Below are positions 30,384 to 63,975 of a stretch of 64,000 bases of DNA, piece after piece. The DNA is taken from contig CBDHDJ010000004.1 of assembly GCA_965261645.1 (NCBI GenBank), positions 1,263,362 through 1,327,361 of the forward strand. The letters run 5' to 3'. Position 1 is the stretch's first letter. Each line of letters begins with the position of its first letter. The notes under the pieces were generated by a model. That model saw nothing but the letters and a program-made list of their open reading frames with translations. It had not been told where the DNA came from and did not search any database. The translations under genes were made by a program, and so were the position numbers. Source of the DNA: Alphaproteobacteria bacterium. Its GTDB lineage: Bacteria; Pseudomonadota; Alphaproteobacteria; SHVV01.

Positions 30384-30400
30384 GGTCCCCGCCAGACAAA

Positions 30401-36166: not shown

Positions 36167-36706
36167 GCATCTCATGCCCCGAACCTCATGTGGGGCACCG
36201 ATGGCGTTCGGGTGTTCACGGTGGACGACGGCTGGGGCTGGATCTTCACCGCCGTCGAGCATTGGAACGCCGAGTGTGTCGGCTGGCATGTCTGCAAGCG
36301 CGGCGACCGCTTCGCCGCCCTGCAGCCGATCTCCATGGGGCTTGCCGGGCTGTATGGCTCGACCGCGGCCGGCGCGGCTCGGGGGCTGGCCTTGCGGATG
36401 GATCACGGCTCCCAGTATCTGTCGGACCACTTCACCAACCAGATCAAGTTCTGGGGCATCCAGCCGTCCTACGCCTTCCTCGCCGAGCCCCAGACCAACG
36501 GCGTCGCCGAGCGGTTCAATCGCACGCTGAAGGAACAGATCATCCATGGTCGCATCTACCGCAACATCGCGGAGCTGCGGGACGCCGTCCGCGACTTCGT
36601 CGAACTCTACAATGCCCAGTGGATCGTCGAAAAGAACGGCTACATGAGCCCCGCTCAAGCTCGTCAGGCGTGGCACGCCGCGATCTCAATCAGGCCCGCC
36701 GCGTGA
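36167..36706 (+). pseudogene. IS3 orfB 3' portion (rve integrase core)
   Basis: DDE core WGTDGVRVFTVDDGW ... DHGSQY ... AERFNRTLK. It continues the frame of the 5' portion. Confidence 0.7.
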
Positions 36707-36754
36707 GACAAACTTGTGTCCAAGGAACCGGGTGCGCTACAAAATTGCGTAAAG

Positions 36755-36799
36755 CAACCATCGACAATTTACCGAGATTCCGGAGTGAATCCAGCTAAC
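36755..36799 (+). repeat. about 35-45 bp imperfect direct repeat, copy 1, upstream of the M23 peptidase gene
   Basis: CAACCATCGACAATTTACCGAGATTCCGGAGT has about 27/33 identity to copy 2 at 38237-38280. Confidence 0.45.
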
Positions 36800-36866
36800 T
36801 TGACAAAGCCGTCGTGCGCTACACTCGGCAACCCGCACGGATTTACGAGAGAACACCGCAAAACCA

Positions 36867-38225: not shown

Positions 38226-38236
38226 ATGGCTTATGG

Positions 38237-38280
38237 CAGCCATCGACCATTTACCGAATTTTCGGAGTTAACCGGTTAAC
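38237..38280 (+). repeat. direct repeat copy 2, abutting the IS5 left inverted repeat
   Basis: CAGCCATCGACCATTTACCGAATTTTCGGAGTT. See copy 1. Confidence 0.45.
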
Positions 38281-39369
38281 GGCTTTGGTGCATGGACCTG
38301 AGGATTAGTATATCTGGCTCCGCTTCCGTCTTTGAGAGTTTGTCATGCCCTTCAAGTTCCACGCATCGCGTCGCCACCATATCCCCAGAGCCAAGTACCG
38401 GGTCATGAACTGGCCGGATTATGACCGTGGTTTGGTTCGGCGCGGCGACATTCGTTTCTGGATTGATGAGAGCGCCCTGGAGCAATGGGACGCAGCCAAG
38501 CGGCGAACTCCTGGTGGCCAGCGGCGGTTTTCAGAGTTGGCGATTTCCACGACACTGATGCTGGGGGTGGTCTTCAGACTGCCGCTGCGCCAGACGGAAG
38601 GCTTTGTGCGTTCCCTCGTGGACTTGATGGGGTGCGATCTGCCGGTGCCGGATCACACCACGCTGTCGCGGCGGCGGCGAACGGTGGATGTCGTTGTGGA
38701 AACCAGCACGAACAAGCGGTCTACGGATATCGTGCTGGATTCCACGGGCCTGAAATTCTTTGGCGCTGGCGAGTGGGCTCGCGCCAAGCACGGTGAAACG
38801 CGGCGCTCGTGGCGCAAGCTGCATATCTCGGTTGACCCGGCCAGCAGCGAGATCCGGACGCATGAACTGACCGGTGACGACACGGCCGATGCGACGATGG
38901 CGGGACCGCTGGTCGCCGGTTCCAGTGGGGTGATCCGGCGCGTGTTTGCCGACGGCGCCTATGACGGGGAGCCCGTGACAAAAGCGATCCGAGAAGCTCG
39001 GCCACCGAATTCACCACCTGAAATCATCATCCCGCCACGCGCCACATCCATTCCTCCCCCGGACACGCCTCATGGCGGATCGGAACGGGAGCACCATGCG
39101 GCGGAGATCGCCTCGAAGGGAAGGATGAACTGGCAGAAACGACAGGGCTACGGATTGAGAGCGCTTGGCGAAACAGCCATGGCTCGCGTCAAGAGGCTCA
39201 ACGGCGGCAAGCTCACCGCTCGCACATTCCAATCCCAACAAACCGAAATCGCCATGCAGATCGACGCACTCAATCGCTCTATCCGTGCGGCGAAACCAAA
39301 CACAATCAGGATCCGCTAACCAACCGGGGAATGGGCGATCACACCACCGCGGCTCCATGCACCAAAGCC
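38281..39369 (+). mobile_element. IS5-family insertion sequence (1089 bp)
   Basis: Perfect 16-bp terminal inverted repeats GGCTTTGGTGCATGGA / TCCATGCACCAAAGCC. No obvious target-site duplication. Confidence 0.8.
38345..39319 (+). CDS. IS5-family DDE transposase
   Basis: 324 aa, DDE_Tnp_1-like (VLDSTGLKFFGAGEW ... VFADGAYDG). Confidence 0.85.
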   Translation: MPFKFHASRRHHIPRAKYRVMNWPDYDRGLVRRGDIRFWIDESALEQWDAAKRRTPGGQRRFSELAISTTLMLGVVFRLPLRQTEGFVRSLVDLMGCDLPVPDHTTLSRRRRTVDVVVETSTNKRSTDIVLDSTGLKFFGAGEWARAKHGETRRSWRKLHISVDPASSEIRTHELTGDDTADATMAGPLVAGSSGVIRRVFADGAYDGEPVTKAIREARPPNSPPEIIIPPRATSIPPPDTPHGGSEREHHAAEIASKGRMNWQKRQGYGLRALGETAMARVKRLNGGKLTARTFQSQQTEIAMQIDALNRSIRAAKPNTIRIR

Positions 39370-39652
39370 TGTCGTAGGCAAAGAACGTCAGCACGAAGTT
39401 CATCCACGCTCCCAAAAGGGGTGCCAGAAACCACCACGGCATCGGTAATTTCAGCACGGGGTCCCACGTGTAGACGCCGAACACGCCGATGATCGCGCCC
39501 AGCGTCGTGTACCAGAGCAATATTCCCCAGCGCAGCAGGCTTTCATCGCCGACCGGATAGACCGTGAGGTAGATAAACCCCGCAAGGCCGAACAGGGCGC
39601 CGAGCGTTTTGCCGACGGCGATGCGGGTGTTCAAAGAGGGATTGCCGAACAT
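39370..39652 (-). pseudogene. membrane-protein gene, 3'-truncated by the IS5 insertion
   Basis: 94 codons of a multi-transmembrane protein (MFGNPSLNTRIAVGKTLGALFGLAGFIYL...) run directly into the IS5 right inverted repeat. Confidence 0.4.
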
Positions 39653-39820
39653 TTGAACCTCCAGGGTTATTGGAGTTGCCGGTCAGGCCGGAGTATCCGC
39701 AATCGGCCGCAATCGATTGACCTAAATCGACTTGATGTTGCGTTCGGTGCAAGAGGCGATGGCCGGCGGTGTGGGCTACGGGAGGCAATAGCCCACACCT
39801 GGAGGGCCAGCGCATGCCGC

Positions 39821-40306
39821 CTAATTGGCGTTGTTACGCTTTTGCTGCCCCCGGCGGTGGTGCCATCGGTCACTCATCGACAGCCCGCCGTCGTCGTTGC
39901 GGTCCAGCCGCTCGACGATGTTGGCCAACGGCCTGTCGTACTCCGCGCGCGAGATAACAGCGTTGCCGTCCGTATCCAGCATTTGGAAGGCACGCACGGT
40001 CAGCGGACGCGTGGTTTCATGCCAGACGCCGGCGAATTCATTGAGGCTGAGGTTGCCGTCGCTGTCGCCATCGTGGGCCGCATGACGGTCGTTGCGCACC
40101 TTGTCGATCTCCGCTTGGCTGAGCTTGCCGTCACCGTCGGTGTCGATGGACTCGATTATTTCCATCGCCATGAGGCCGAACTGTCCTTTGGCGAAGAAAC
40201 CCATGCCGCCATGACCGCGTTCCGCGTAGCTCGCGCCCGCGAGTGCGATACCGCCGATAGCCGCGGCGATGCCTATTCCGATCAGCGCCTTCGTTCTCGT
40301 TCTCAT
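39821..40306 (-). CDS. secreted EF-hand calcium-binding protein
   Basis: Signal peptide MRTRTKALIGIGIAAAIGGIALAGASYA, then four DxDxDG loops (DTDGDGKLS, DGDSDGNLS, DTDGNAVIS, DRNDDGGLS). Confidence 0.7.
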   Translation of the reverse strand: MRTRTKALIGIGIAAAIGGIALAGASYAERGHGGMGFFAKGQFGLMAMEIIESIDTDGDGKLSQAEIDKVRNDRHAAHDGDSDGNLSLNEFAGVWHETTRPLTVRAFQMLDTDGNAVISRAEYDRPLANIVERLDRNDDGGLSMSDRWHHRRGQQKRNNAN

Positions 40307-40670
40307 GGATATGCTCCTGCGTCGAATGTCTATGACCCAAATATAGGCAGCGTTTGCCGCAAAACTATGTGCATCCGCGCACTTTGTGTTGCGCGAGTTG
40401 GACGATCGGGGAACTGGCAAACTTTGTTACGCTCTTTGCCTGCGTTTGAGCGAGGCTCTCGTTAGCCGTTGGCTACTGAAGCGTCACCGTCGTTCCCGTG
40501 GCCGATGGCCGATGATCACCGGGATATCCGCGAGCCCTTGGCGCGCTACCTGAAGAAGCATGACGAGCTGCGCGTCACCATGGCGGACAGCAGCGCGTTC
40601 GCGCGGCGGATAGATGCAGCGCAACGATGGGTTTCTGCCCGCCGCAGTTTCAATCCCGGAACGGTTCTCC

Positions 40671-41990
40671 TCATTGTGGCGGAATGCCGGATTTAGCGGC
40701 TTCGGCGTGCGGCGTGACCGGTCCAGTGTTCGCCGCCGCCAGGTCCCGCCAGCGGGTGGTGTACCGCGGGGACAGGTGCTCCTGGCGCATCCGCCACTCC
40801 GCAGTGCTGGCCGCGAGACCGAGGCCGATCGAGCCCCGCCCGAACCGCCCGTTGATCCGATCCATCGCCTGCATCAAGCGGCCGTTCTCCAACGGTCTGT
40901 CCTGGAACAGCGATCCAACCGCATCAGCGGCCGGCGACAGGTCAAGGAGCATCACGCCGGCCTTGCGGTAGGCAAAGCCCTCGCGCCAAAGGCGCTCGAG
41001 GATTCGCAACGCCGCCGCGACGATAACGCGGTTGTCGGCGGTTGGCGCCGGGAACGCTGCCGATGCGGCGGTCGTGTATTGTGGGGCGGCGGTATCGAAC
41101 CTGTCGGTCGCGATGGACACCTGCAGATTGCCGCAGACTTGATCGGCCTGACGGATCTTCTCCGCCGTCCTTTCCGCGAAGGATACGATGGCGTCGCGAA
41201 CCTGCTCCCTATCGCTAATGGCCCGGCTGAAGCTTCGCGAACAGCAGGTGGTCTGTTTGGCGGCGGGCTGTGTCTCCAATTCATGACAGGCGATGCCGCG
41301 CAGCTCGTGCACCGTCCTGAGCCCAGTCACTCCCATGCGCTGGCGCACCCAGCCATCGGGCGCATCGCGCAGGTCCAGCGCGGTCCCGATACCGCGCCCG
41401 GCCAGCATCCTCGACCAGCGGCCGCCGATGCCCCAGACATTGCCCGCGGCCGTCCTGGAGAGCGCCGGGCCGACCCAGGCGGGGTTGCCCGACAGGTCAA
41501 GAACCCCTCCCGTCCGTGGCGCGCTTTTCGCGATCCTGTTGGCGATCTTGGCCAGGGTCTTGGTCGGGCCGATCCCGATCGATACCGGGATGCCGGTCCA
41601 GCGGCGGACCCGGGTGCGAAGATTGCGGCACCACCGGGTCAGGTCGGGAACCGCCAGGCGGTCGAGATCGAGGAAGCTCTCGTCGATACTGTAGACCTCG
41701 ATGCGCGGCGCTTCGGCGGCCAGAATGCTCATCACCCGTTCCGACAGGTCGCCATAGAGCGCGTAGTTCGAGGACAGCACCGTGACATCGTGGCGTTCGA
41801 CGAGGCGCTTCGCCTGGAACAGCGGGACGCCCATGGCGATGCCGAGTGCCTTGGCCTCCTGGGAGCGGGCGACGATGCAACCATCGTTGTTGGACAGCAC
41901 GACGATGGGGCGGCCGGCGAGCGAAGGTTGGAACACCCGCTCGCACGAGGCATAGAAGTTGTTGCAATCGACCAGGCCGATCGTCGTCAT
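40671..41990 (-). CDS. umuC: Y-family translesion DNA polymerase V catalytic subunit
   Basis: N-terminal IMS domain [17 protein letters not shown] ... SIDESFLDL. Sits downstream of umuD. Confidence 0.85.
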
Positions 41991-41994
41991 GGAC

Positions 41995-42444
41995 CTAACG
42001 CGCGCAGTGCCGGCGGATGCTGTGGGTAACGACACCCCAGGCCTCGCAACCGGCATCGTCGAGGGCGATATCGGGAAAAGCCGGATTCTCGGCGTAGAGG
42101 ATCAGGGCGCCATTGCTCTTTCTCAGGCGTTTGACCGTCAGTTCGCCATGCAGGACGGCGATGACGATATCGTCGGCCTGGGGCGCGATGGCGCGGTCGA
42201 CAACGAGAAGGTCGCCGTCGAAAATTCCGGCATCGCGCATGGATTCGCCCTGCGCGCGGATGAAAAAGGTCGCGGCCGGGCGGCGGATCAGATGCAGATT
42301 GAGATCAAGCTTGCCCTCGATATGGTCGTCGGCGGGGCTTGGAAAACCGGCGGGTACCCTGGAGCCGTAAAGTGGCAGGGCGAGTTCGGTGGGCTGATCG
42401 GTGAAACGATGCAAGGAGGCGGCCCTCAGTGTTGACACGAACAT
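41995..42444 (-). CDS. umuD: LexA-like S24 peptidase, pol V accessory subunit
   Basis: GFPSPADD ... cleavage-site region and Ser/Lys dyad (GESMRDAG ... TVKRL). The exact start is uncertain: the LexA box overlaps the Met at 42444. Confidence 0.8.
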
Positions 42445-42453
42445 AACATGAAC
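42439..42453 (-). promoter_or_regulatory. alphaproteobacterial-type LexA (SOS) box
   Basis: GAACATAACATGAAC, a perfect GAAC-N7-GAAC direct-repeat operator, positioned at the umuD start. Confidence 0.6.
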
Positions 42454-42674
42454 AAACAACACTGGTTGTCAAGATCGTGCGGCGTGTTGAGTGCTGTCCC
42501 GATCCGAACATTCCTTCCGCCAGGGACCCATCGGCCGTTTGCCGTTCGCTCGAGAGCCTCCAGATTAGAGTCTGGCACTCAAAATGACGTCTCTCGCCGC
42601 GTTCGATGCCGTGAGGACGCGCCATTGCCCATGAGGTCGAGGAGAGAGGGCGCCGGTCCAGCCAACCGCGCGGC

Positions 42675-47096: not shown

Positions 47097-47497
47097 GGTG
47101 CTCGCTCCGTGGCGGCGCTGTTGGTGAGATATATAACCTGGTCCAGGCGCTGCCCGATTTCGACCGTGATAATTCTCATGGTTCCAGTCCCGGAAATTCC
47201 TACGCTTTACAACAGGTTACGGAAATACCCGGACGATTTTGTACAACATGGCAGGGTTTTATGAACTCATTGAAATCTAAGCACATAAAGGTGCAGAGGT
47301 GTGCGTAGTTTTACATACCCTCTGATGTTTCGCGAGAGGATATAGACTGCATAATCGGAGATCAAGGGGAATTTGGCCCTGCCTTGGTACGTGGCGGCAC
47401 ACTTGAAATGGCCGTTCGAATGGCGGAATTGACCGGCTGTCGGGCCAATGGCAGAATCCGGGCTTGCTCGCGGATTCTGGAAACAGCGGGGAGATGG
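47097..47497 (+). other. candidate oriT / divergent promoter region between traA and a small accessory gene
   Basis: Locally low GC. Direct repeats CGGAAAT(T/A)CC and T(T)ACAACA(G/T)GG are present, along with a GTGCGTA word reminiscent of MobF nic regions. No nic site is proven. Confidence 0.3.
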
Positions 47498-47803
47498 ACG
47501 ATGCCGGCGAAACGCTTCAACGAAGCGGATATCGACTTCGATGCTTTAGACGGCGAGTTGGCGAAATTTGAGCCACCGAAGCTGAGCCTGACGGATGTAC
47601 TGGACTGTTTGCGGAAGCGGCTGGTCAAGCAACAGGCGAAGGGGGTGACGGTGGCTCAAATGCATGAGGTGTTGAAATCGAGCGGCATCGACATCACGGA
47701 ACGCAGTCTGCGGACGGTTCTGGACAAGGGCGTATTGCCGGGACGGAAGGTTGCCGAGGCCGCTAGGTCCATGGTGTCGGAAGAAGGCAGTGATCCGTTC
47801 TGA
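47498..47803 (+). CDS. small hypothetical protein divergent from traA, possibly a relaxosome accessory protein
   Basis: 101-aa ORF starting at MPAKRFNEADIDF with helical, charged character. Its position mirrors accessory-protein genes of MobF systems. Confidence 0.35.
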   Translation, partial: TMPAKRFNEADIDFDALDGELAKFEPPKLSLTDVLDCLRKRLVKQQAKGVTVAQMHEVLKSSGIDITERSLRTVLDKGVLPGRKVAEAARSMVSEEGSDPF

Positions 47804-48145
47804 GCCGAACGACGGCGTATATAGGTTCGCGAAGCAGCGAAGCGGCGTTCGAAGAACGGCGGTCCGTCGTGGCGGTTGTCGGGATGCGGATAATGAAGTT
47901 GCAGTGGGGGATGGTTGGGAGGTGGCGCGGCGCTTCAGCGCCCGCATCCGGCGATGGCGCGAAGCGGCCGATCCGATAGGCGGCGATGCATCGTTCGAAG
48001 AACGAGGAGCCGCCAGCGAGCGTAAGCTCGCACAATTGGCGGTGGCGCGAAGCGCCCCGCCATGGGCCGTGACTTTATGCACACGGCATAAAAAAGGGGC
48101 CGACCTCCGCTGTGTGATGGCGGGGGCCGACCCTGAAGGGTGCCG

Positions 48146-50602: not shown

Positions 50603-51046
50603 TTAGAACGGAATTTCGCTATCAACCACCGTCGCAGCGGTTTCGGCGGAAGGCACGGTCTTGTCGTTCATCGCCGGTGCGCCGTTACCGTTCGGCTTAT
50701 CCAAGAACTGGACCCTGCCGCCGGGAACCAGAAGGATCTCGGTCGAGAACCGGTCGCTGTCCTCGCCGTCCTTGCGCCACTTGCGGGTCTGCAGCTTGCC
50801 CGAGACGTAAACCAGGCGGCCCTTCTTCGCGTGCTTCTCCATCATCTCCACCAGGCCGTCCTGGAAGGTGACGATGCGGTGCCACTCGGTGCGGTCCACC
50901 TTGTCCCCTGAGTTTTTGTCGAGGTAACTTTCATCGGTCGCGATCGAGACGTTGGCGACGCGGCCGCCGTTGGTGAGGTGGCTGATGGTGGCGTCGGCGC
51001 CGAGGCGTCCGATGAGTTGCGCGTTATTCAATCCGAACATGATCAA
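50603..51046 (-). CDS. ssb: single-stranded DNA-binding protein
   Basis: OB-fold N-terminus (LIGRLGAD ... EWHRIVTF) and an acidic C-terminal tip DSEIPF. Confidence 0.85.
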   Translation of the reverse strand: MIMFGLNNAQLIGRLGADATISHLTNGGRVANVSIATDESYLDKNSGDKVDRTEWHRIVTFQDGLVEMMEKHAKKGRLVYVSGKLQTRKWRKDGEDSDRFSTEILLVPGGRVQFLDKPNGNGAPAMNDKTVPSAETAATVVDSEIPF

Positions 51047-52354: not shown

Positions 52355-55300
52355 TTACGCTGGGGTCGCAGCCGCGAGCGGCCAGCGTTCGAGGATGCGG
52401 CCGAGGTCGATGTATTCGGGCACGAACACACGGGTCCGCCACGAGACGATCTCGGTGGCGCACCCCATGCGCTTGAGTGCCGCGAGATCGTTGTCGGCCG
52501 GTCCCTCGATCTCGACGCGGCCAGCGCCCATCAGGCGCCGCCTTGCGAGGCGCCAGCCGTTGGCGAGATCGAAGGACGCACCGCGGATCAGGATCGCCTC
52601 GTGCATCTCGGCCGAACTCATGACCGGTCCGCCGGCCAGTCCGAAGGCGTCGCGAAAGGCGTGCGCCTGCTCGGGCGTCAGAACCCGGCCGAGCAGGCTT
52701 TCCCCGGCATCGGTCGCAAGCCGGCGCACCCGCATGTTCTCGCCCGGCAGGCGGTCCCATATGGGGAGCAGTAGGCCGGTGACCAGCCACAGGCGGGATT
52801 CGGTGTGGCTGGGCAGCCCTTCGATCTCCGCATCCCACAAACTGCGCCAGCGATCTTCGCCTGCATCCTCCCAGTTCGAGGCGGCAAGTTCCTCCGCGGC
52901 CATGGGCTCGCGGGCGGCGGGACGGACCAGGCGGACCCGGGCTTCGACCCCGCCGTCCTCGAACATCCGCGAGGGCGCGGGCAGAACAACGGCTGCACGC
53001 TTCGAGCGGGTGTTGATGACGGGCCGCCCGTCGCGCCAGGCGAGGGCATCGTCCGCCTGGAGCGGCACGAGCCGGTCGCGGCGGACGATCTCGACAAGTT
53101 CGGTGGTGGCGCCCGAGGCTTCATGAACGTGAACCGCCTCGCGCGAGGAGATGCAGAGCGAGTCGGCCCGGATGGTCTCGACACCCTGCTCGTGGGTCCC
53201 GGCCTCGATGGCCTGTTCGATATTGGCCTCGATGCGGGTTTCCAGCTCGGCGAACAGTTCGTTCTGCTCGGCGATGGGCAGGGCCAACAGGCGGTTGAGG
53301 AACCGGGGCATCGGCGGCAGGTCTTCCTTGAGCGAGCCTTCCCAGATCAGCTTCAACCCGGTGGCGTCCTCGAAGCGGTCCATGGACCAGCCCGCAATGT
53401 TGCCGCGCCACAGCGCGATGTAGAACTGGCGCAGCGCCACCTTGGCGTAGGGGCTCTCCAGATTGTCGCTGGCCCGGAACAGGGTGGCGTCGCCGCCGCC
53501 CATGGCGGTCTGCGAATCGCGCTGTCCCCGGGTGATGGCGCCGAGGCTGTCGAGACGCCGGGCGATGGTGGCGATGAAGCAGCGCTCGCCCTTCACATCC
53601 GTGGTGACCGGGCGGAACAGAGGGGCCGAGGCCTGGTGCGTTCGATGGGTGCGGCCCAGGCCCTGGATTGCTTGGTCGGCCCGCCAGCCCGGCTCCAGCA
53701 GGTAATGGATACGCCGCGCAGTGTTGCCGCAGCCGAGATCGGCGTGATAGCTGCGCCCGGTGCCGCCGGCCATGGAGAAGACGAGGATGCGTTTACCGCC
53801 CGCCATGAAGGCGGCGGTCTCGGCGAGGTTGGCCGAGGCCGGGCGGTTGCGTAGCGCCAGGCGCTCGCCGGACGTATCGGCGATACGCAAGATCCGGCGC
53901 GAGCGGCCGGTGACCTCGGCGACGGCCTCGTCGCCGAAGCGGTGGAGGATCTGGTCGAGCGCCGCCTGTACCGGCGGCAACGCCGCGAGCTTCTCGATCA
54001 ACGCGTCTCGCGCAGCGACTGCTTCCTGGCACAAGACCGGGTTGCCCTCGGCGTCGGTCACGGGCCGCGACATGAGATTGCCCTCGTCGTCGGTGAAGGG
54101 TTCCTGCAATTGCACCGGGAAGGCGTGGGCCAGATATTCCAGGCACGCCTCCCTCGGCGTCAGGTCGACGGAGATGTCGTCCCATTCCGAGACGGGGATC
54201 TCGGCGATGCGCCGGTCCAGCAAAGCCTCGCCGGTGGAGACCAGCTGGATGACGCAGGCATGGCCGGCCTCGAGATCGCTCTCCACGGACCGGATCAGCG
54301 AGGGGCATTTCATGGCGGTCAGGAGATGGCCGAAGAAGCGCTGCTTCGCCCCCTCGAAAGCCGACAGCGCGGCGGACTTGGCGTTCTTGTTCAGGGTGGC
54401 ATCGCCTTCCATGATGCCGGTGGCTTTCAGGGCGTCTTCTATATTGCGGTGGATCACCTTGAAGGCCCCGGCATAGGCGTCGTAGATGCGCCGCTGTTCC
54501 GCAGTCAGGGGATGTTCGAGCAGCTCGACCTCGACTCCGTCATAGCTGAGTGCGCGGGCCTGATAGAGCCCGAGGGCCTTCAGATCGCGGGCAACCACCT
54601 CCATCGCCGCGACCCCGCCGGCCTCCATGGCGGTGACGAAATCGGTACGCTGTTCGAAGGGCGTCTCGCCCCCTGAACCCGCGCCGCCCCACAGGCCGAG
54701 GCGCCGCGCATAGGCCAAACCGGGCACCGTGGTGGCCCCGGTGGCGGAGACATACAGGATACGGGCATCGGGCAAGGCGTTCTGCAAACGCAATCCGGCG
54801 CGTCCCTGCTGCGAGGGGGCCGTATCGCCGCGCGATCCCTTGGACCCTGCGGCGTTGGCCATGGCGTGCGCCTCGTCGAACACGATGACGCCGCCAAAGG
54901 CATGGCGGGAGTCTTCATCCATACGATCCGCAAGCCAGCCCACGATCTGTTCGAGGCGCGAGGACTTTTCCTGGCGGGCGGGCGAGCGCAAGGTTGCATA
55001 GGTGGTGAACAGGATTCCGGACTCTTGTGGAATATCGGTCCCCTGGCGGAACTTGCCCAACGGGATGATGTCGGCCTCGCTGCCGCCGATCGCGGCCCAG
55101 TCGCGGCGCGCGTCCTCGAGAAGCTTGTCGGAGGCGGACAGCCACAGCGCCCGGCGGCGGCCGCGCAGCCAGTGGTCGAGGATAATGGCGGCGACCTGGC
55201 GGCCCTTGCCGCAACCGGTGCCGTCGCCCAGCATCCAGCCGCGCCGGAAACGCACTGGCGCGGACAGGGCTTCACCGTCGCCGGCCGCATCCGCGCCGGG

Positions 55301-56971
55301 TTCAAGACCGGCGCTTACGGCTTCTCCCTTATCTGCTTTATTGGCGGTCTCCGGGACGCTATCGCAGTCATCGCTGTTGTCATCGTCATCGTCCGCGACG
55401 CGTGCGACGGTCTCCCAGCCCTCGCCAATGCGGTAGAGCGCGGAAAGATGGCGGCCGTGGGCCTGACCGGCGAGGATGACGCTTTCGAGCTGGGCGTCGG
55501 ACAGTAGTTCGTCCGTCACGATACGCACGGGCAGCATCGGGCGGTAGGCCGGCACGGGATGGGGCACCGCCGCCATGGCGGCGGATTGCACCAGCGGCGT
55601 CGGATGTTCGCAGGCGCCGGGAATGCGCGCGGTCCGGGGACACCACGGCTCGTAGACGCCGGCATGGGTGGTCTCCGGTTCGTCTGCAGTGCCTTGCCCG
55701 TTTGCGGATGGGGTTTCGTAGTCGAGTTCGGCCACCGGCCCCCAATCACGGACTTGCGGGGCTGCGGGTTTGGTGTTGGGCGCGGTGGCCGCTGTGCGCT
55801 TTCGTGGGGCCGGCCGTGCGGCGGCATGGCCGAACACATCGCCGGCCGGAACAAGCGCAGCGGCTATTGGCACGACCGCCTGCCGTTGCGGCACATTGGC
55901 GGCGATGGCTGCAAGCAACCCGGCGGCGGTGGGGACGGATGCCCGTGCGTCGATCGGGACGCCCTGGGCATTGGCGGGATCACGGTCGATTACGGTCAGC
56001 CGGGTATCGAAGGTCGTGCCGCGCCGTGCGTAGGCGCGCCCGTCGATGGCGATGGAAAAGACGGTGCGCGGCGGTGGATCGAGGCGCTCAAAAGCGCGGC
56101 TCCAGGCGGCATCGCCTGGGATGCAGCCGGCCGACGTGATCGCCACCAGCCGCCCGCCCGTCGGAAGCATGGAGAAGGCGGAACGGAGGTGACGCAAATC
56201 CGCATCATGGCGGATGCGCTGGACCCCGGGGCTTGCCGAAAACGGCGGGTTCATCAACACCACTGTGGGATGCAGGCTCGGGAGATAATCGGCGATGGAC
56301 TCCGCGTTGTGACGGGTGACCGGCGCGTGCTCGAACAATCCGGCAAGCAACCCGACGCGGACGGCGGCGATCTCGTTCAGGTGCAGGGGATTCCCCGAAC
56401 GCGTGTCATCGGCGTGCTTGCCGAGAGCGCATTCGGCCATGACGGCGAGCATGCCGGTGCCGGCCGAGGGCTCCAGCACGATGTCGCCGGGCCGGATGGC
56501 AGCGGCTTGCAGCGCGGCGTAGGCGAGCGGCAAGGGGGTGGAGAACTGCTGCGGGGCAAGCTGTTCCTCCGACCGCCTTGTCTGGGACGGCTCCAGCGCC
56601 GCCAGGGTCTCCAGCATGGCGAGCATGGCGGCGGCCGATCCAGGTCCGGCGCCCGCCTCGCGGCGCATGAGACGGCCGTAACGCTGGATGAACAGCACCA
56701 TTGCGGCCTCGGCCGCTTCGTAGGCGTCCTTCCAGACCCAGGCTCCTTGCGTGTCATTGGCGCCGAAGGCCGCGCTCATGGCTTCGCGCAGGGCCTTTGC
56801 ATCGAGCGCGCGGCCCGCCTCCAGGCTGGGAAGCAGAGCGGTTGCGGCGGCCAGCAACGCGGCCGGCTTGGAGAGGACGCCCGGGGTATCGGCAATAGCT
56901 GGGGATGCGGGAAGGGGCTGGACGGCGGGCGGACGCGCGGGCGCGTTCGCCGCCGGTTGGGCGTCGAGCAT
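52355..56971 (-). CDS. N6-adenine methyltransferase fused to SNF2/strawberry-notch-like helicase (1538 aa)
   Basis: Methyltransferase motif I VLEPSAGTGMLAV and motif IV VVLMNPPF. P-loop GDGTGCGKGRQVA with DEAH-like VIVFDEAHAM. C-terminal GRTHRTHQ ... ARRLDSLGAITRG typical of strawberry-notch Helicase_C_4. Confidence 0.8.
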   Translation of the reverse strand: MLDAQPAANAPARPPAVQPLPASPAIADTPGVLSKPAALLAAATALLPSLEAGRALDAKALREAMSAAFGANDTQGAWVWKDAYEAAEAAMVLFIQRYGRLMRREAGAGPGSAAAMLAMLETLAALEPSQTRRSEEQLAPQQFSTPLPLAYAALQAAAIRPGDIVLEPSAGTGMLAVMAECALGKHADDTRSGNPLHLNEIAAVRVGLLAGLFEHAPVTRHNAESIADYLPSLHPTVVLMNPPFSASPGVQRIRHDADLRHLRSAFSMLPTGGRLVAITSAGCIPGDAAWSRAFERLDPPPRTVFSIAIDGRAYARRGTTFDTRLTVIDRDPANAQGVPIDARASVPTAAGLLAAIAANVPQRQAVVPIAAALVPAGDVFGHAAARPAPRKRTAATAPNTKPAAPQVRDWGPVAELDYETPSANGQGTADEPETTHAGVYEPWCPRTARIPGACEHPTPLVQSAAMAAVPHPVPAYRPMLPVRIVTDELLSDAQLESVILAGQAHGRHLSALYRIGEGWETVARVADDDDDNSDDCDSVPETANKADKGEAVSAGLEPGADAAGDGEALSAPVRFRRGWMLGDGTGCGKGRQVAAIILDHWLRGRRRALWLSASDKLLEDARRDWAAIGGSEADIIPLGKFRQGTDIPQESGILFTTYATLRSPARQEKSSRLEQIVGWLADRMDEDSRHAFGGVIVFDEAHAMANAAGSKGSRGDTAPSQQGRAGLRLQNALPDARILYVSATGATTVPGLAYARRLGLWGGAGSGGETPFEQRTDFVTAMEAGGVAAMEVVARDLKALGLYQARALSYDGVEVELLEHPLTAEQRRIYDAYAGAFKVIHRNIEDALKATGIMEGDATLNKNAKSAALSAFEGAKQRFFGHLLTAMKCPSLIRSVESDLEAGHACVIQLVSTGEALLDRRIAEIPVSEWDDISVDLTPREACLEYLAHAFPVQLQEPFTDDEGNLMSRPVTDAEGNPVLCQEAVAARDALIEKLAALPPVQAALDQILHRFGDEAVAEVTGRSRRILRIADTSGERLALRNRPASANLAETAAFMAGGKRILVFSMAGGTGRSYHADLGCGNTARRIHYLLEPGWRADQAIQGLGRTHRTHQASAPLFRPVTTDVKGERCFIATIARRLDSLGAITRGQRDSQTAMGGGDATLFRASDNLESPYAKVALRQFYIALWRGNIAGWSMDRFEDATGLKLIWEGSLKEDLPPMPRFLNRLLALPIAEQNELFAELETRIEANIEQAIEAGTHEQGVETIRADSLCISSREAVHVHEASGATTELVEIVRRDRLVPLQADDALAWRDGRPVINTRSKRAAVVLPAPSRMFEDGGVEARVRLVRPAAREPMAAEELAASNWEDAGEDRWRSLWDAEIEGLPSHTESRLWLVTGLLLPIWDRLPGENMRVRRLATDAGESLLGRVLTPEQAHAFRDAFGLAGGPVMSSAEMHEAILIRGASFDLANGWRLARRRLMGAGRVEIEGPADNDLAALKRMGCATEIVSWRTRVFVPEYIDLGRILERWPLAAATPA

Positions 56972-57217
56972 GAATTGTCTCCCAATTAGAATGGTCGGGC
57001 CGGAGCTGTGGCCGGGGCCTTACAGCTCCGGCGAAGGGCCGGGTGGTGCCGAAAGCCGGTGTCCTCGCTCTCCCGGCCCCGGTTCACCCGGTCCGGGCGC
57101 AACCCGCCTCCTTGCGGACGGGGGCACGGATATGGAGGATTATGCGGGCGCGGTCCGCGGTATCAGGCCGGCACGATGCCGATGCGCTTGCCCCGGGGTT
57201 GGCGGACAGGAACCTGG

Positions 57218-57697
57218 ATGAACCGAACTCTCGTCATCTTCGTTGCATTGTCCGTGTTCTTCTCTATCGGTCCTCTCGCCGATGAAATCCCTTCCGGATT
57301 CGACCCGGGCAGTTCCAAAGCCAAGGGATTGATCCTCACGTTCGAAGACTGGCCGCCGGATAGTGTGGACACGGACCCTCTTCTCCAAAAGCTTCATTCC
57401 GCCGGGCTCAAGGCGGCGCGCAAACTGCCGCGGTTCAGGGTTTGGGTGTTCGAATGGGATGAATGGCAGGAGGGCCGCAGGGCCGAAAACCTGTGTATTG
57501 AACTGCTGCTGGACGATCGAACCTCTTCCCTGTTGGAGAGCTGTGAACCGGATTACTTGCTGCATCCCGCCCGGCCCGCGGCCGGCGGCAACCAGCCGCG
57601 GTGTCATGCCGGTCCGATGTCGATGCGCTCGCCCCAGGGCTCGCGGTTCCTTGTCCCCGGCGGCGACGGCCCCCAGTTGCAAAAAATCACGGGATAG
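57218..57697 (+). CDS. secreted hypothetical protein
   Basis: Clear signal peptide MNRTLVIFVALSVFFSIGPLA. Its 3' end overlaps the convergent vWA gene by about 94 nt, so the C-terminal extent is doubtful. Confidence 0.3.
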   Translation: MNRTLVIFVALSVFFSIGPLADEIPSGFDPGSSKAKGLILTFEDWPPDSVDTDPLLQKLHSAGLKAARKLPRFRVWVFEWDEWQEGRRAENLCIELLLDDRTSSLLESCEPDYLLHPARPAAGGNQPRCHAGPMSMRSPQGSRFLVPGGDGPQLQKITG

Positions 57698-58962
57698 CCG
57701 GGCTTGGTCTCGGGGTAGCTGTCGCATTCCATGTCGGTGAGGTAGAGGCAACAGCTTGGACGCACCCCATGCTCATGGAGCCATGCGAAGCCTGGCCGAA
57801 AATCGGTCCCGCCCCGTCCCTTGATCGTGATGCTGTCCGGTAGTTCCCCGGCGGGATACTGGGCTGCGTCCTGCAGCACCGCGTCGACCTGAAGGACATA
57901 GATGCTGTCCGGTTGCAGTTCGGCGGAGATCTCGCGAATCTCGGCCCAGAACAGGGTCAACGTCTCGCCCGGCAGCGAGCCGGAGGTGTCGATGATGATG
58001 GCGATGGCATCGGTACCCTCCGAATGCCTCGAGGGCAGATAGAGGCCGCTGTCGATGAAACGGCGGTTGGGGACACTCCAGCTATAATCGCGGCGCGCGG
58101 CATCGGTCATGTAGCGGCGCAACAGCGACCGCCAGTAGAGGATGCTCCGATGCGCTTGCCGGATCGTCTCCTCGACTGCGCCCGGCGCGTTGCCTTGCGC
58201 TCGGGCGAGGCTCGCGGCCTGGTGCATGGCCTCGTCCCAGGCCTGCTCCTCGGCGGGTGTGTTCAGAGGCGATTCGTCGGACTGGCCGGTGGCGTCGTCG
58301 CGGCGCTCGTCCGCGTCCATGACTTCGCCGGTGCCGCAAGGGTCGTGGCTGGCGGGCATTTGCCCGGATGGTTTCGAGTCCGCGCTGCCGCTGCCCGGTC
58401 CCGGTTCGTCCTGCTCTTGCGGATTGCGGTCATCGGTTGGATCGGACGGAGCGCTTTGGTCTTCGTCGCCATCACCGCATTGGGGGCCGGCAGCGCTGCC
58501 ACTGTCATCCACATCGCTGGATGAACAGGCATCGCCCGGATCCTCTGAATCGGCGGACGGTTCCGGAAGCCGGTCGTAGGCCTGCTCGGCGCTGATGCCG
58601 TCCCAGGCTTCGGCCTCGGGCGGCAGTGCAAAGCCCGCGTCCCGCAGCAGTCCGTGGCTGACCAGCTGAGAGGCACGTTGCCAGCGCTCGGGGTCGCGGC
58701 CGCGCCGCCGGGTGTGATGCTTCAACGCGCAGGCCAGGACCACGCGCGCGAGCGCGGTCTTGATGTGATCGGCATCCGTGTCCGCCACCCACCCGGGCGC
58801 GTAGCGGATATCCTTGCCGTCGCTGGCCAGGGTCTCACGGGTTGCGTCGGCGCGGATCGGAAGGCGCAATGCCAGGCTGCCGAAGAAGGGCTGGTCGCGC
58901 AACAGCGCGGTCACGCAGTCGCTGACGCGACGGGCGGATTCCGAGTGGGCAGGGGCGGCCAT
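57604..58962 (-). CDS. vWA-like domain protein with N-terminal putative metallopeptidase domain (DUF2201-type)
   Basis: N-terminal DQPFFGSLALRL region, a long acidic low-complexity linker, and a C-terminal vWA-like MIDAS motif (AIIIDTSGS ... TD). Its start overlaps the stop of the upstream gene. Confidence 0.7.
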   Translation of the reverse strand: MAAPAHSESARRVSDCVTALLRDQPFFGSLALRLPIRADATRETLASDGKDIRYAPGWVADTDADHIKTALARVVLACALKHHTRRRGRDPERWQRASQLVSHGLLRDAGFALPPEAEAWDGISAEQAYDRLPEPSADSEDPGDACSSSDVDDSGSAAGPQCGDGDEDQSAPSDPTDDRNPQEQDEPGPGSGSADSKPSGQMPASHDPCGTGEVMDADERRDDATGQSDESPLNTPAEEQAWDEAMHQAASLARAQGNAPGAVEETIRQAHRSILYWRSLLRRYMTDAARRDYSWSVPNRRFIDSGLYLPSRHSEGTDAIAIIIDTSGSLPGETLTLFWAEIREISAELQPDSIYVLQVDAVLQDAAQYPAGELPDSITIKGRGGTDFRPGFAWLHEHGVRPSCCLYLTDMECDSYPETKPGYPVIFCNWGPSPPGTRNREPWGERIDIGPA

Positions 58963-59858
58963 CAGGCTGCCTCCCTGTCCGTGGCGGCGGGCGCGAAGTA
59001 GCCCGCGAATTGCGCCGTGAGCGCATCGGCGTCGCGCTTGACCTGCCGGCGGAGGTTGGGATCGAAGCGCCCCGACGGGCGCAGGGCGTCCGGCTCGATG
59101 CCGGCGAACTTGTCCTTCACCTCCCGGCACAGCATGGCGAGATCGTCGTCGGCGAAGATGTTGAGCCGGGGCACCACATCCACCAGCTCCCTGATGTTCT
59201 CGATCAGGCTGTCCCGGAACACGAACGGTTTGCCGTTCTCGTCCGCGCGCAAGCGTTCGCCGACACGCTCGACCGCCTCGCCGAGGCGCCGGTAGAGATC
59301 GCGCTGCGCATCGTTGAGGCGGGTCCGGACCTGTTGCTCTATATCCCGCTTGACGCGCTCGGTCTCGCCCTGGGCCAGATCGGCCATGAAGTGGCGCGCG
59401 TCGGGGACCGGGACGATGCGGTAGCGAATGGCGAACTTGCCATGAAGCGCCTCCGTGCCGGGATAGTCCTCCAGGCGGAACAGCCGGCCGAGGTCGAGGC
59501 GGGCCTGGTCGACGTAATCGTCGTAGTCCTCGATGAAGCGGGCGCGCTCGCGCACCACGCGCTCGACCAACGAGTCCAGCGCCGCGGTGTAGCGGTCGTA
59601 GTTGGCGACGGTGAGCAGGCGGCCGCCCTGGTCGTCCCACGGCAGAGTGTTGGCATAGTGACTGGTCCTTGCATTGCTCATGGTCGCGGCCAGCGCGGCG
59701 AAGGCCTGCTTGGGCAGGAGGCGTTTGTTGTAGCGCCCGGCGTTGGTGTCGGCATCGTGATGGATGGCGACCTGTTGGCTGGCCTGGCGGTCGTAGAGCC
59801 TGCCGGACCAGGAGTTGATCCGCAGGCTGACGAGCATGGCATCATGGGTGAGATTCAT
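58962..59858 (-). CDS. conserved hypothetical protein between the MoxR and vWA genes
   Basis: 299-aa ORF (MNLTHDAMLVSLRINSWSG...) translationally coupled to the vWA gene. No domain recognised. Confidence 0.5.
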   Translation of the reverse strand: MNLTHDAMLVSLRINSWSGRLYDRQASQQVAIHHDADTNAGRYNKRLLPKQAFAALAATMSNARTSHYANTLPWDDQGGRLLTVANYDRYTAALDSLVERVVRERARFIEDYDDYVDQARLDLGRLFRLEDYPGTEALHGKFAIRYRIVPVPDARHFMADLAQGETERVKRDIEQQVRTRLNDAQRDLYRRLGEAVERVGERLRADENGKPFVFRDSLIENIRELVDVVPRLNIFADDDLAMLCREVKDKFAGIEPDALRPSGRFDPNLRRQVKRDADALTAQFAGYFAPAATDREAA

Positions 59859-59881
59859 GGCGTGGGTCTCCCGGGGTGGTG

Positions 59882-60907
59882 TCAGCGGGTTTTGGTAGCG
59901 GCCCACTGGATAAAGGCCTGGGTATGCTGGAGCGCGGGCTCGCGGCGGATGCAGGAACCGACGAGGAACTCGCCGACCTCGCGCCGGAGGCGCGTGGCAT
60001 AGGTGACGATGGCGCCGAGATTGATGTCGTCGGCCATCCTGTAGAGCGAACCGCAGAGCGCGATCAGCGCACTGGCGTTGCCGGGGACCACGGCGCCCTC
60101 GGGATCGTCGATGACGGTGCGGGGATGGGGCAGTTCGTGCCAGACCTTCAGGAACGCCGAGAACTCGACCGCCGCGGCCTCGCCGACGGTGCCCCGGAAC
60201 AGGGCCCGCTCGGCGACCGGATCGAGGCCACCCCGGCGGTGCACGATGTTCGAGACCATTTCCCAGGTCCTCGGACACGGGAAAGCTTTCTCCGTTGATT
60301 GGGGGTTGAAGGCATGCAGCAACTCGGGCCGCATCGACACGAAGAAAAGCACCTCTGGAGCGATTCCATTCCCCGCGCCCCAGGCGCACCAGTCCGTCGC
60401 ATCGACCCGGATCTCCAGATGGACGAAACGCGAGGCCAGCGGCGTCGGCATCCGGTGGACGACGCCGCGGTCGCCCTCACGGTTGCCGCAGGCGATCAGC
60501 GCGGCGCCCTCGGGGAGTTCATACTCGCCGCATTTGCGGTCGAGCACGAGCTGGTACAGGGCCGCCTGCACCATCGGCAGGGCCGAGGGCAGTTCCTCCA
60601 GATTGATCAACCAGCTTCCGTCCGCATCCGACGGCGGCAGGAAAGCAGGCGGCGCCCAGCGGGTGCGGTCGGCGCTGTCGCGCCACGGGATGCCGCGCAG
60701 ATCGACCGGGTCCAACAGCAGGGCGCGGACATCGACATACTCACGGCCGGCTTGCGCCGCGACCTGTTGGGCGATCTGACTCTTAGCGCACCCTGGAGCT
60801 CCCCAAACCACGCAGGGCTGCCGGGCCTCGACCAGCAGCGCCAGTGTGCTGGCGAGTTCGCTCGGGCGCAGCGAGTAATCGGCGGAGATGGTATCGGGCT
60901 CGGTCAT
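59882..60907 (-). CDS. MoxR-like AAA+ ATPase (AAA_5)
   Basis: Walker A GAPGCAKSQIA, Walker B LINLEEL, sensor and arginine-finger regions. MoxR/RavA-like size of 341 aa. Confidence 0.85.
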   Translation of the reverse strand: MTEPDTISADYSLRPSELASTLALLVEARQPCVVWGAPGCAKSQIAQQVAAQAGREYVDVRALLLDPVDLRGIPWRDSADRTRWAPPAFLPPSDADGSWLINLEELPSALPMVQAALYQLVLDRKCGEYELPEGAALIACGNREGDRGVVHRMPTPLASRFVHLEIRVDATDWCAWGAGNGIAPEVLFFVSMRPELLHAFNPQSTEKAFPCPRTWEMVSNIVHRRGGLDPVAERALFRGTVGEAAAVEFSAFLKVWHELPHPRTVIDDPEGAVVPGNASALIALCGSLYRMADDINLGAIVTYATRLRREVGEFLVGSCIRREPALQHTQAFIQWAATKTR

Positions 60908-62185: not shown

Positions 62186-63355
62186 TCATTGCGCCGTCTC
62201 CCGGTCGCCGGCATCGGTTGTGGGTTCCGTGCAAACGGGTCCGATATCGACGCTGACCTTGCCGCCGCACACCACGATGGTGACCGTGCGGCCGCGCGGC
62301 ATGAGCCAGAAGATTTCCCGCCATACCGCATCCGCGATGGTGCGCTGGCGGGCTTCCTCGACCGAGCACAACAGCTTGAGCGACATATGCAGGGCGTCTT
62401 CCTCGAAGCGGGTGAGTTGTGTTTCCCAAGAGTCCGCATCCGCGTCGTCGCTGGGGCTGAAGAACGCGGCGCGCAGCAATCGGGCGAGTTCCTCGGGCGC
62501 GATGCCGCTGTCCGCCGTCACCAGGGGCAGCGCGTCATGGATCGATGACCAGGCCTCGCCCGCGAAGGCGAGATCGGCGGGAACGGCGATGGTGTCGCAT
62601 TTGTGGAAGCAATGGCGCGGTGATTTAGGCGGATGCAGAACATTCAGGTGCATCACGATGTCCTCGGGCCGTTCCGGCTCTTCGCCGTTCTCCCGGTTGG
62701 TGAAGTAATCCAGAGAACGAACGGCGCCATCCACGGTCACAAGGGTCTCGATGCCGGTGACGCGCGCGAGCGTGTCGTACCAGGGATAACCCTCGAAACG
62801 TGGCTCGGGGGCGAACAGCCGGAGCGTGCGTTCCGATCCGTCCTGGAGCCCGGCAAGGCCGAGGGCGCGATGAAGCGCCCGGGCCTCGGGCGGCTCGGGG
62901 TCGGCCTGCATCACCAGCGCGCCGATGCCTACGCCTGCGAAAACGGACCGCTCGTCCCAATAGTCCGTGTCGGCGATGGCGGGACGCCAGGGACGCAGTT
63001 CGGCGGGCGGCTCGGGCATCTCGATCCCCGCCTCTTTCGCCTGGTGCCAGTCGGTCCAGGCAACGCGCGGAGCCGGATCGGCCTGCGCCATGGCGCGGTA
63101 GACGGCAAGCCGCGCGGCCTCGCGCATCTCTTCCAGAAACGAGGTCTCTACCGCTTCCTTTCTCGCGGGCAGGACCAGCTCCAGATCGGGGCAGGAGTCG
63201 ATGTCGGCGCGCGCCGACCAGACGCCGCCTTCCACGGCGTCGATCTGTGGCAGGCGCACCGGCAGGGTCAGGCCATGAAAGTTGACGTCGGGGACGCGGT
63301 AGCCCGCATGGCTGTCCTTAAAAACGCCGAAGACGAGGCCCTTCCATGGTTCCAC
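62186..63355 (-). CDS. hypothetical protein, partner of the GHKL-ATPase ORF
   Basis: 389-aa ORF with a GTG start. It overlaps the 3' end of the GHKL ORF by 88 nt in another frame. This may be a separate gene or the continuation of a frameshifted single gene. Confidence 0.45.
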   Translation of the reverse strand: MEPWKGLVFGVFKDSHAGYRVPDVNFHGLTLPVRLPQIDAVEGGVWSARADIDSCPDLELVLPARKEAVETSFLEEMREAARLAVYRAMAQADPAPRVAWTDWHQAKEAGIEMPEPPAELRPWRPAIADTDYWDERSVFAGVGIGALVMQADPEPPEARALHRALGLAGLQDGSERTLRLFAPEPRFEGYPWYDTLARVTGIETLVTVDGAVRSLDYFTNRENGEEPERPEDIVMHLNVLHPPKSPRHCFHKCDTIAVPADLAFAGEAWSSIHDALPLVTADSGIAPEELARLLRAAFFSPSDDADADSWETQLTRFEEDALHMSLKLLCSVEEARQRTIADAVWREIFWLMPRGRTVTIVVCGGKVSVDIGPVCTEPTTDAGDRETAQ

Positions 63356-63975
63356 ATGGAGCGCGCCGTCGAGAAAGGCGCGCCGCTCGACAACCTCGCC
63401 GTCGATGGTACCGGCAGGGGATAGTGGCGAGCAGCGGTCTGCAGGAAAGCGCGCACCGCGTGGGGCGCTTCGGACGCGTCGAAGGTAACCGAGGTTCCAT
63501 GGGGCCAGGGGGCGCTGTCGTCCGGGACGACATGGGCCCCATCGCGGCCAAGAAAGTGAGCGGGCTCCAGAACCAGGCGGTAGCCGGGGCTTGGATCCCC
63601 GCCGGGGACGCGCCAGCGCAACGTGCAGCGCCGGCGCGAGAGGGCGAGAAGCCCGAACCCGGCGGGATCTTCCGCCTCGGCGATGCCGTCCTTCCAGACG
63701 CTCTCGCCGAAGGTCAGCAGGACGGCGGGATCGGCGATTCCCACGCCGTCGTCGGTGATAGTGACGCGGGTGGTATCTCCGTCCTGCTCGATGGTCGCGG
63801 CAACGCGGTTGGCGCCGCCACGGCGTGAGTTTTGCAGCGTCTCGGTGAAAATATCGGCAAGGCCAGCCGAAAACAGCCGTGTCACCTTGTCGATGGCGCT
63901 GTCGCCGACCCGGGCGTGGATCGTGGCGGAACTATTGCCGGCCTCGGCCGTAACGGCATTCTGTGCGGTAGACAT
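63268..63975 (-). CDS. GHKL-type (histidine kinase/HSP90/MORC-like) ATPase domain protein
   Basis: N-box ETLQNSRRGGA, G1 box DDGVGI and G2 box AGFGLL. An AGGAGA RBS lies 6 nt upstream of the ATG at 63975. The C-terminal 100 aa are of uncertain authenticity. Confidence 0.55.
   Translation of the reverse strand: MSTAQNAVTAEAGNSSATIHARVGDSAIDKVTRLFSAGLADIFTETLQNSRRGGANRVAATIEQDGDTTRVTITDDGVGIADPAVLLTFGESVWKDGIAEAEDPAGFGLLALSRRRCTLRWRVPGGDPSPGYRLVLEPAHFLGRDGAHVVPDDSAPWPHGTSVTFDASEAPHAVRAFLQTAARHYPLPVPSTARLSSGAPFSTARSMWNHGRASSSAFLRTAMRATASPTSTFMA

Follow-up and report, generated by a model that had tools for sequence, protein, structure and literature searches.

A AAA_5 ATPase, DUF3150 and vWA gene cassette of mobile elements related to the gp24/gp25 pair of N4-like phages

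In NorQ/NorD, CbbQ/CbbO and midasin, an AAA_5 ring pulls a client protein that is held by the metal-ion-dependent adhesion site (MIDAS) of a vWA domain. Among phages, gp24 and gp25 belong to a set of 14 core genes that N4-like phages share and are middle transcripts in N4 (PMC4193335), and Iyer et al. 2021 (PMC7824862) described a MoxR AAA+ ATPase paired with a metallopeptidase-vWA protein in group 2.2 jumbo phages, for which a role in virion assembly was proposed. The ternary vWA-MoxR conflict systems of the VMAP and iSTAND types (Kaur et al. 2020, PMC7159879) have the gene order VMAP-MoxR-vWA, with VMAP and iSTAND proteins as third components. Here, we analyze three genes, A, B and C, in a 64,000-nucleotide stretch of an alphaproteobacterial genome assembly (GCA_965261645.1, contig CBDHDJ010000004.1, positions 1,263,362 to 1,327,361), which we call the window. 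They encode a AAA_5-type ATPase (A), a DUF3150-type protein (B) and a protein that joins a zincin-like domain to a vWA-like domain (C), and lie in an integrative conjugative element (ICE). We propose, with a probability of about 0.5, that the triad is a mobile-element cassette for an ATP-driven protein-remodelling complex that acts early in establishment or takeover, with B as its third subunit. A preliminary description of the sequence had instead presented the genes as a candidate NTP-dependent conflict system.

As judged by profile matches, A and C are homologues of N4 gp24 and gp25, and the module belongs to the gp24/gp25-type family. A matches phrog_1297 (E 8e-90; A residues 8-337 on profile positions 4-347 of 356) and C matches phrog_1314 (E 1e-72; C residues 7-449 on profile positions 9-390 of 394), the two families whose proteins the annotation of phage PEV2 equates with N4 gp24/gp25. 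A and C are 27-31% identical to the proteins of PEV2 and Vibrio phage D501; the likeness extends to an ATPase gene upstream of the vWA gene, adjacent and on one strand, and to the same domain layout. The module and the phage pair also differ. The phage pair usually comes without a DUF3150 gene, and the phage copies read keep the HExxH motif, whereas the window module lies on an ICE and its peptidase domain is dead. The PEV2 genes around the pair are noted as early-transcribed in the record annotation. A 172-aa PEV2 open reading frame (ORF) between the ATPase and vWA genes was considered as a B homologue and ruled out (hhalign probability 0.1%). The jumbo-phage pair (PMC7824862) resembles the module in its MoxR-like ATPase and its vWA protein with an N-terminal metallopeptidase, and jumbo phages were among the matches, but no third DUF3150 component was described there, and virion assembly with proteolytic processing is inapplicable to a conjugative element or a dead peptidase. 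Many phage records label phrog_1314 homologues "HNH endonuclease" and others "metallopeptidase"; the former is probably a propagated mis-annotation, since the zincin-like and vWA content gives it no support.

The preliminary description had suggested surveying the co-occurrence of the three genes across genomes, and this survey found them tightly linked. It covered 80 genome loci with a B alignment, nearly all from alphaproteobacterial metagenome-assembled genomes (MAGs) and often in several copies per genome. The order A-B-C and the strand are the same as in the window at 78 of the 80 loci, with some copies truncated or interrupted; at the remaining two, A or C was not found beside B. All five plasmids read, from Rhodovastum, Burkholderia (two), Variovorax and Simplicispira, have an intact triad, A being displaced by a few small genes in the Simplicispira plasmid. 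Two distant metagenomic contigs contain all three genes, and a third, whose end falls upstream of B, contains B-C. Of 80 IMG/VR viral contigs, 77 have the genes arranged as A-B-C or B-A-C. Within the ICE family the cassette shifts relative to HATPase_c, DUF2958, the Strawberry-notch-type helicase gene and ssb, yet stays whole. Elsewhere its neighbours include ParB_N, RadC, PAPS-reductase-like, toprim, PRTRC and type IV secretion system (T4SS) genes, and the PHROG assignments of neighbours in two viral contigs gave unknown-function families only. A megablast search of the region against plasmids found nothing. On the evidence of gene content, the A-DUF3150-vWA triad is a cassette widespread on plasmids, integrative elements and viral contigs.

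An ORF check placed all three genes, which are predicted to be co-transcribed, on the minus strand between positions 57604 and 60907, the limits given in the preliminary description, which had also called them a translationally coupled operon. This holds for B and C, which are predicted to be genuinely coupled because the stop of B overlaps the start of C (TGATG) behind a GGGAGG located 7 nt upstream; A and B are closely spaced, with a 23-nt gap that contains GGGAGA, and do not overlap. No hydrophobic segment was found in A, B or C, and a scan for promoters and terminators was uninformative. Approximate pairwise Nei-Gojobori ratios of nonsynonymous to synonymous substitution rates (dN/dS), computed from 68-70 copies with a full-length intact ORF per gene, have whole-gene medians of 0.22 for A, 0.28 for B and 0.31 for C, and all three genes are thus estimated to be under purifying selection.

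Gene A encodes a predicted member of the AAA_5 (dynein/midasin/MoxR-related) clade. The match of A itself to Pfam AAA_5 is sub-threshold (E 0.0023, 18.4 bits; cut-off 22), six of ten A-family members match AAA_5 at E<=0.01, and a profile of ten family members identified midasin AAA domains as the best solved relatives in the PDB (E 1.6e-21). Profiles were required for this, as a single-sequence PDB search with A gave P-loop noise alone. The bpMoxR model was not matched at its threshold (13.2 bits, 27 needed), and AAA_3 was matched by just one of the ten members (E 0.0098). Of the earlier designation as a MoxR-type AAA_5 ATPase, the AAA_5 part stands, and "MoxR-type" applies only in a broad sense. 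The Walker A motif of the window copy is GAPGCAKS (positions 60779-60802, A residues 36-43), in which the Lys and Ser are retained and Ala replaces the usual Gly before Lys. This GxPGxAKS form occurs in 62 of 68 clade copies, whereas GK[ST] is found in relatives from plasmids and phages. Walker B reads LINLEEL, with LEEL in place of the LD[DE]L of relatives. Asn142 and Arg160, Arg213 and Arg306 are conserved in the alignment, which we read as a candidate sensor-1 Asn (N142) and candidate catalytic arginines.

The N-terminal domain of C was earlier described as a putative metallopeptidase; its homology to this class is supported by the Pfam match (Table 1), but the catalytic motif has been lost in this lineage. 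Weak profile matches of C around the zincin motif region were to M48/HtpX/BepA and minigluzincin proteins, and a single-sequence PDB search with C gave no match. In the alignment with plasmid and phage relatives, the family conserves HE[VT]xH as its zincin motif and, further downstream, N..D. The window protein has R73-V74-V75-L76-A77 at the HExxH positions and Gln at both of the conserved N95/D99 positions. The replacement motif RVV[LM]A is present in 78 of 78 readable copies of the alphaproteobacterial clade, in proteins that are 57-90% identical overall, while HExxH is retained in plasmid and most viral relatives and also in the PEV2 and Vibrio phage D501 copies. Yet the N-terminal domain has the lowest dN/dS within C (0.17; linker 0.50, vWA half 0.29). 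Judged by its motifs, the domain is not an active peptidase in this alphaproteobacterial clade. Because the motif is lost in every readable copy while the domain is the most constrained part of C, we regard it as a pseudo-peptidase, i.e., a conserved non-catalytic module. HExxH is also independently degenerate in four viral lineages, and canonical Walker A and B motifs are kept in the three HExxH-less viral lineages whose Walker A was readable. The independent loss of HExxH in lineages with canonical Walker motifs points to a peptidase chemistry that is dispensable and an ATPase-vWA core that is essential. A coupling of peptidase loss with the change in Walker A was considered and rejected, since other HExxH-less lineages keep GK[ST].

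The same substitutions could be taken as signs of decay, i.e., the module of this clade would be a remnant that is no longer functional. The change of HExxH to RVVLA and of N..D to Q..Q, the GxPGxAKS form of Walker A and the truncated or interrupted copies in multi-copy genomes fit this explanation, but it is very unlikely given that the replacement motif is invariant among such divergent copies, that the dead domain is the slowest-evolving part of C, that 68-70 full-length intact ORFs are available per gene, that the MIDAS is invariant, and that HExxH was lost independently elsewhere with canonical ATPase motifs kept.

The remainder of C agrees with the preliminary description, which had recognized a vWA-like protein with a long acidic low-complexity linker. 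The MIDAS residues of the DUF2201 vWA part are intact (D325-x-S327-x-S329, T386 and D410) and invariant in two alignments. In an AlphaFold2 model this part has a predicted local distance difference test score (pLDDT) of 80-90 and finds weak Foldseek and profile matches to integrin I domains, TRAP, Ro60 and NorD of the NorQD complex; the alignment behind the model is shallow (63-92% identity), and what Foldseek returned can be interpreted for the vWA part only. The linker comprises 105 aa with an isoelectric point of 4.05 and 29 D/E against 4 K/R, and varies in length among relatives. It contains the motif G-T-G-E-V-M-D (positions ~58315-58335, C residues ~210-216), whose family consensus G-x-G-E-V-x-D is kept in plasmid and viral relatives despite the fast evolution of the linker. 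The motif could be an internal ligand of the MIDAS or the pore, or a former self-cleavage site.

Gene B was previously reported as a 299-aa protein with no recognisable domain and as the best candidate for a novel effector or adaptor. The conserved middle ORF is confirmed, but it encodes 298 aa and is, by sequence and predicted fold, a divergent member of DUF3150 and no orphan. Pfam DUF3150 (PF11348) was the sole match of the window copy, at E 0.016 and 15 bits, below the family cut-off of 24.9; 15 of 40 diverse B relatives match DUF3150 at E<=0.001, close relatives carry precomputed PF11348 assignments, and sources name relatives DUF3150. A single-sequence PDB search with B gave no match. The remote-homology and structure predictions recommended in the preliminary description lead to the same family, in that the predicted fold, a bundle of long helices with a small N-terminal beta-sheet packed on them, aligns with a DUF3150 phage protein at a template modelling score of 0.81 (Foldseek). 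The B family comprises 10,262 cluster representatives, nearly all of them stand-alone proteins of ~290 aa (275-345 aa), and B is kept in the linked loci as well, which excludes the possibility raised earlier that the middle ORF is not conserved. Conserved motifs are GRYNKxLLP, TLPW, DYP and PxLN, along with the acidic residues D23 and D237; no enzymatic motif was recognised. Because B has a constant single-domain architecture across thousands of clusters and no recognised enzymatic motif, it shows, as far as sequence and fold models can tell, no sign of being an effector. The effector half of the earlier suggestion was thereby abandoned, also in view of the purifying selection on B; the adaptor half survives as our own proposal. 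The searchable literature yielded no description of a linkage of DUF3150 to AAA and DUF2201 genes.

These results bear directly on the idea that the triad is cargo of the ICE and serves as an NTP-dependent system of conflict, defence or exclusion, in which an invader would be sensed and B would be released as a novel effector. The triad does combine a MoxR-like ATPase with a vWA protein and a third, conserved component, as do the ternary systems of the VMAP and iSTAND types in Kaur et al. 2020 (PMC7159879); moreover, defence systems are often carried by mobile elements. Measured against those types, however, the genes are arranged here as MoxR-B-vWA and in some relatives as B-MoxR-vWA, neither VMAP nor iSTAND was detected in the window triad, C has a constant architecture without variable C-terminal effector domains, evolution is purifying and not diversifying (dN/dS 0.22-0.31), and the carrier is a mobile element or phage and not a multicellular bacterium. 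Because gene order, third component, effector variability and diversification all differ, the module lies, by these comparisons, outside the ternary vWA-MoxR conflict systems, to whose architecture the preliminary description had assigned it. PADLOC gave no match, and PADLOC and NCBIfam defence models reached only P-loop-level noise against the triad (E 0.006-0.08, 12-15 bits against cut-offs of 510-1000); a weak similarity to IetA/IteA/EruA was confined to the P-loop and not significant. The sole candidate enzymatic output, the peptidase, is dead in this clade. Finally, strictly lytic N4-like phages have the A/C pair among their core genes and express it early or in the middle phase, which argues for a function of the invader rather than for host defence. 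We consider a conflict system unlikely, and this label was not upheld.

Another explanation is a function in the assembly of a large structure, i.e., the virion in phages and the type IV secretion machinery in conjugative elements. Iyer et al. (PMC7824862) suggested virion assembly for MoxR and metallopeptidase-vWA proteins, and a MoxR-vWA pair is reportedly required for tail development of an archaeal virus, according to a study cited there. The position of the cassette directly upstream of virB11/virB2/virB3/virB4 in two Burkholderiaceae plasmids would also suit an assembly chaperone. However, conjugative elements have no virions and these phages have no T4SS, so that no one structure covers both; the N4-like genes are early or middle genes beside helicase and DNA polymerase, outside the late structural block; and the genes near the cassette, in the window as well as in relatives, are ssb, toprim, ParB_N, RadC and that for the Strawberry-notch-type helicase. 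This explanation is improbable to a similar degree. Since virion-less conjugative elements and T4SS-less lytic phages share the cassette, and since it is early or middle in phages, the common function would most plausibly be a post-entry establishment or takeover step.

Another known group, the MoxR-vWA activases (NorQ/NorD, CbbQ/CbbO, RavA/ViaA) together with midasin (Rea1), shares with the module the AAA_5-type ring and the MIDAS vWA domain. The similarity in sequence is low, and the window module differs by being encoded on a mobile element without a linked metabolic or ribosomal client and by adding a zincin-like domain, an acidic linker and a DUF3150 partner. That it is a classical activase of a metabolic enzyme, of the NorQD, CbbQO or CoxDE type, draws on the same general pair architecture, but is effectively refuted. 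A universal link to one metabolic enzyme, which the preliminary description had named as the finding that would speak for an activase, was not observed, for no client gene of the nor, cbb or cox type lies near the triad in the window and no linked client was found in the 80 genome loci, the plasmids or the viral contigs. The distribution of the triad follows mobile elements instead.

It is attractive to propose how an ATP-driven remodelling complex of this kind could operate. We infer complex formation, remodelling activity, the timing within the ICE and the role of B from the data above. Briefly, A would form an AAA+ ring of the MoxR/midasin-vWA type, and C would act as its co-chaperone, gripping a client via the MIDAS and via the zincin-like N-terminal domain on a flexible acidic tether. 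The N-terminal domain would bind the client and ancestrally cut it, and in the alphaproteobacterial clade the complex would work without proteolysis. The conserved linker motif may serve as the internal ligand of the MIDAS or the pore, as mentioned above. B would complete the complex as a dedicated third component, its likeliest roles being those of adaptor or primary client. The protein acted upon would belong to the host or to the element, and the action would fall in the phase of cell entry or takeover. The triad lies 9.5-13 kb from the relaxase-proximal region, in the same orientation as ssb, toprim and the Strawberry-notch-type helicase gene. In plasmid leading regions, the genes for SSB, methylases and anti-defence proteins all point the same way on the T-strand (PMC11541004); the accessible supplementary text of the leading-region study contains no mention of DUF3150- or DUF2201-type families.

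Several observations weigh against a remodelling complex of establishment or takeover. The suggested placement of the triad in a leading region derives from co-orientation with ssb near the relaxase gene, and in the Burkholderiaceae plasmids it is T4SS genes, not ssb, that adjoin the cassette. The non-canonical Walker A of the clade makes the ATPase competence of A only putative here, and the AlphaFold2 model of full-length C is poor (pLDDT 53), the N-terminal domain and linker having failed. Literature searches found no experimental or functional study of DUF3150, DUF2201 or N4 gp24/gp25 members. Furthermore, B and C are nearly 1:1 in curated plasmids (60 and 70 records), but C occurs in 524 GenBank phage records and B in three. 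Because most cultured phages thus carry A and C without B, B appears from its distribution to be an accessory subunit that characterizes the plasmid/ICE form, together with some forms from uncultured viruses, and is not essential to the A/C pair.

A bolder version of the remodelling proposal is possible, though we hold it only tentatively and deem it on balance doubtful. The triad and the two-gene gp24/gp25 form could together represent a universal entry-phase machine of conjugative elements and lytic phages that mechanically disables or remodels a conserved host factor, e.g., a defence or DNA-surveillance complex. DUF3150 would then be the target-recognition adaptor, and proteolysis an optional add-on that several lineages dropped.

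The genomic setting of the triad is summarized in Table 1. By its gene content, with integrase, TrwC relaxase and SSB genes, the window stretch carries an ICE, which agrees with the conjugative element lacking a metabolic partner such as nor or cbb in the preliminary description. The intergenic region upstream of the TrwC gene is presumed to contain the origin of transfer (oriT). The interval 27748-42462 also holds genes for a LysM protein, an IS110 transposase, an IS3 fragment, an M23 peptidase and an EF-hand protein, and umuD/umuC directly adjoin the relaxase gene. Beyond the intergenic region, a run of minus-strand genes encodes a YAcAr/SLOG protein, a toprim-like protein, SSB, the Strawberry-notch-type helicase, the triad, DUF2958, two unknown proteins and HATPase_c. 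The N-terminal third of the helicase gene product reads as a putative methyltransferase-like region, and Strawberry-notch-type genes recur with the triad in relatives, where the flanks of 20 of 85 loci contain one. Upstream of the triad, the HATPase_c gene (positions 62186-63975, minus strand) consists of two ORFs in different frames, 63268-63975 and 62186-63355, which overlap by 88 nt; in eight relatives it is a single ORF of 600-680 aa, and the window copy is probably frameshifted, either as a pseudogene or through a sequencing error. Between C and the helicase gene lies a small convergent plus-strand ORF (positions 57170-57600) with a signal-peptide-like N-terminus (MNRTLVIFVALSVFFSIGPLA...), which is present in the five closest relatives only and looks like a recent insertion.

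The ICE family is multi-copy in many alphaproteobacterial MAGs, with seven loci on CBDDOM010000002.1, five on CBDCMV010000003.1 and three on OZ253470.1. A or C is truncated or interrupted at several of the multi-copy loci, and the window shares 91-93% DNA identity with several loci. Going by the bin names, some of the bins that carry the family look like sponge-microbiome MAGs. In MOBH plasmids of Burkholderiaceae (Burkholderia), the triad is fixed between a PRTRC (ThiF/ParB-related) cassette and the virB11-virB2-virB3-virB4 operon, and in one Burkholderia plasmid a further ORF of 100 aa separates B from C.

Table 1. Positions of the triad and of accompanying features in the window.
Feature	Position	Strand	Remark
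tRNA-Ser(GGA)	27748-27838		integration end of element
Rieske ring-hydroxylating oxygenase alpha-subunit gene	29202-30383		at integration end
P4-type integrase	30669-31886		after tRNA-Ser
TrwC relaxase, 1473 aa	42675-47096	-	adjoins ~1-kb intergenic region
Intergenic region upstream of TrwC gene, presumed oriT	47097..48145	.	GC content dips here
SSB	50603-51046	-	co-oriented with triad
Strawberry-notch-type helicase, 1538 aa, AAA_34 and Helicase_C_4	52355-56971	-	immediately downstream of triad
C residues ~241-452, helical segment and vWA-like domain (DUF2201)	57604..58242	-	Pfam E 7e-20
C residues ~136-240, acidic Ser/Gly/Pro-rich disordered linker	58243..58557	-	composition, pLDDT <50
C residues 1-135, DUF2201_N zincin-like domain	58558..58962	-	Pfam PF13203, E 2.3e-42
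Gene C ORF	58962..57607, stop at 57604	-	452 aa
Gene B, divergent DUF3150-family protein, 298 aa	58962..59858	-	proposed adaptor/third subunit
Gene B ORF	59858..58965	-	298 aa
Gene A, AAA_5/midasin-like AAA+ ATPase, N4 gp24 homologue	59882..60907	-	phrog_1297, midasin profile match, motifs
Gene A ORF	60907..59885, stop at 59882	-	341 aa

The three-gene DUF3150 form, its occurrence in conjugative elements and the selected peptidase-site loss appear to be undescribed in the searchable literature. The gp24/gp25 genes belong to the core of all N4-like phages and have relatives in jumbo phages; the same pair, together with a DUF3150 protein, forms a conserved cassette of conjugative plasmids and ICEs, and whole lineages retain this cassette under purifying selection after the loss of the peptidase active site. 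This narrows the possible functions to one that is not virion-specific, does not require proteolysis, and is most likely an ATP- and MIDAS-driven remodelling common to DNA invaders. DUF3150, with more than 10,000 clusters, gains a defined genomic partner and a testable role. Caution is advised in naming such proteins "HNH endonuclease" or "metallopeptidase", as current phage records do. The interest of these findings lies less in the window locus itself than in a widespread and unexplained gene pair of phages and plasmids.

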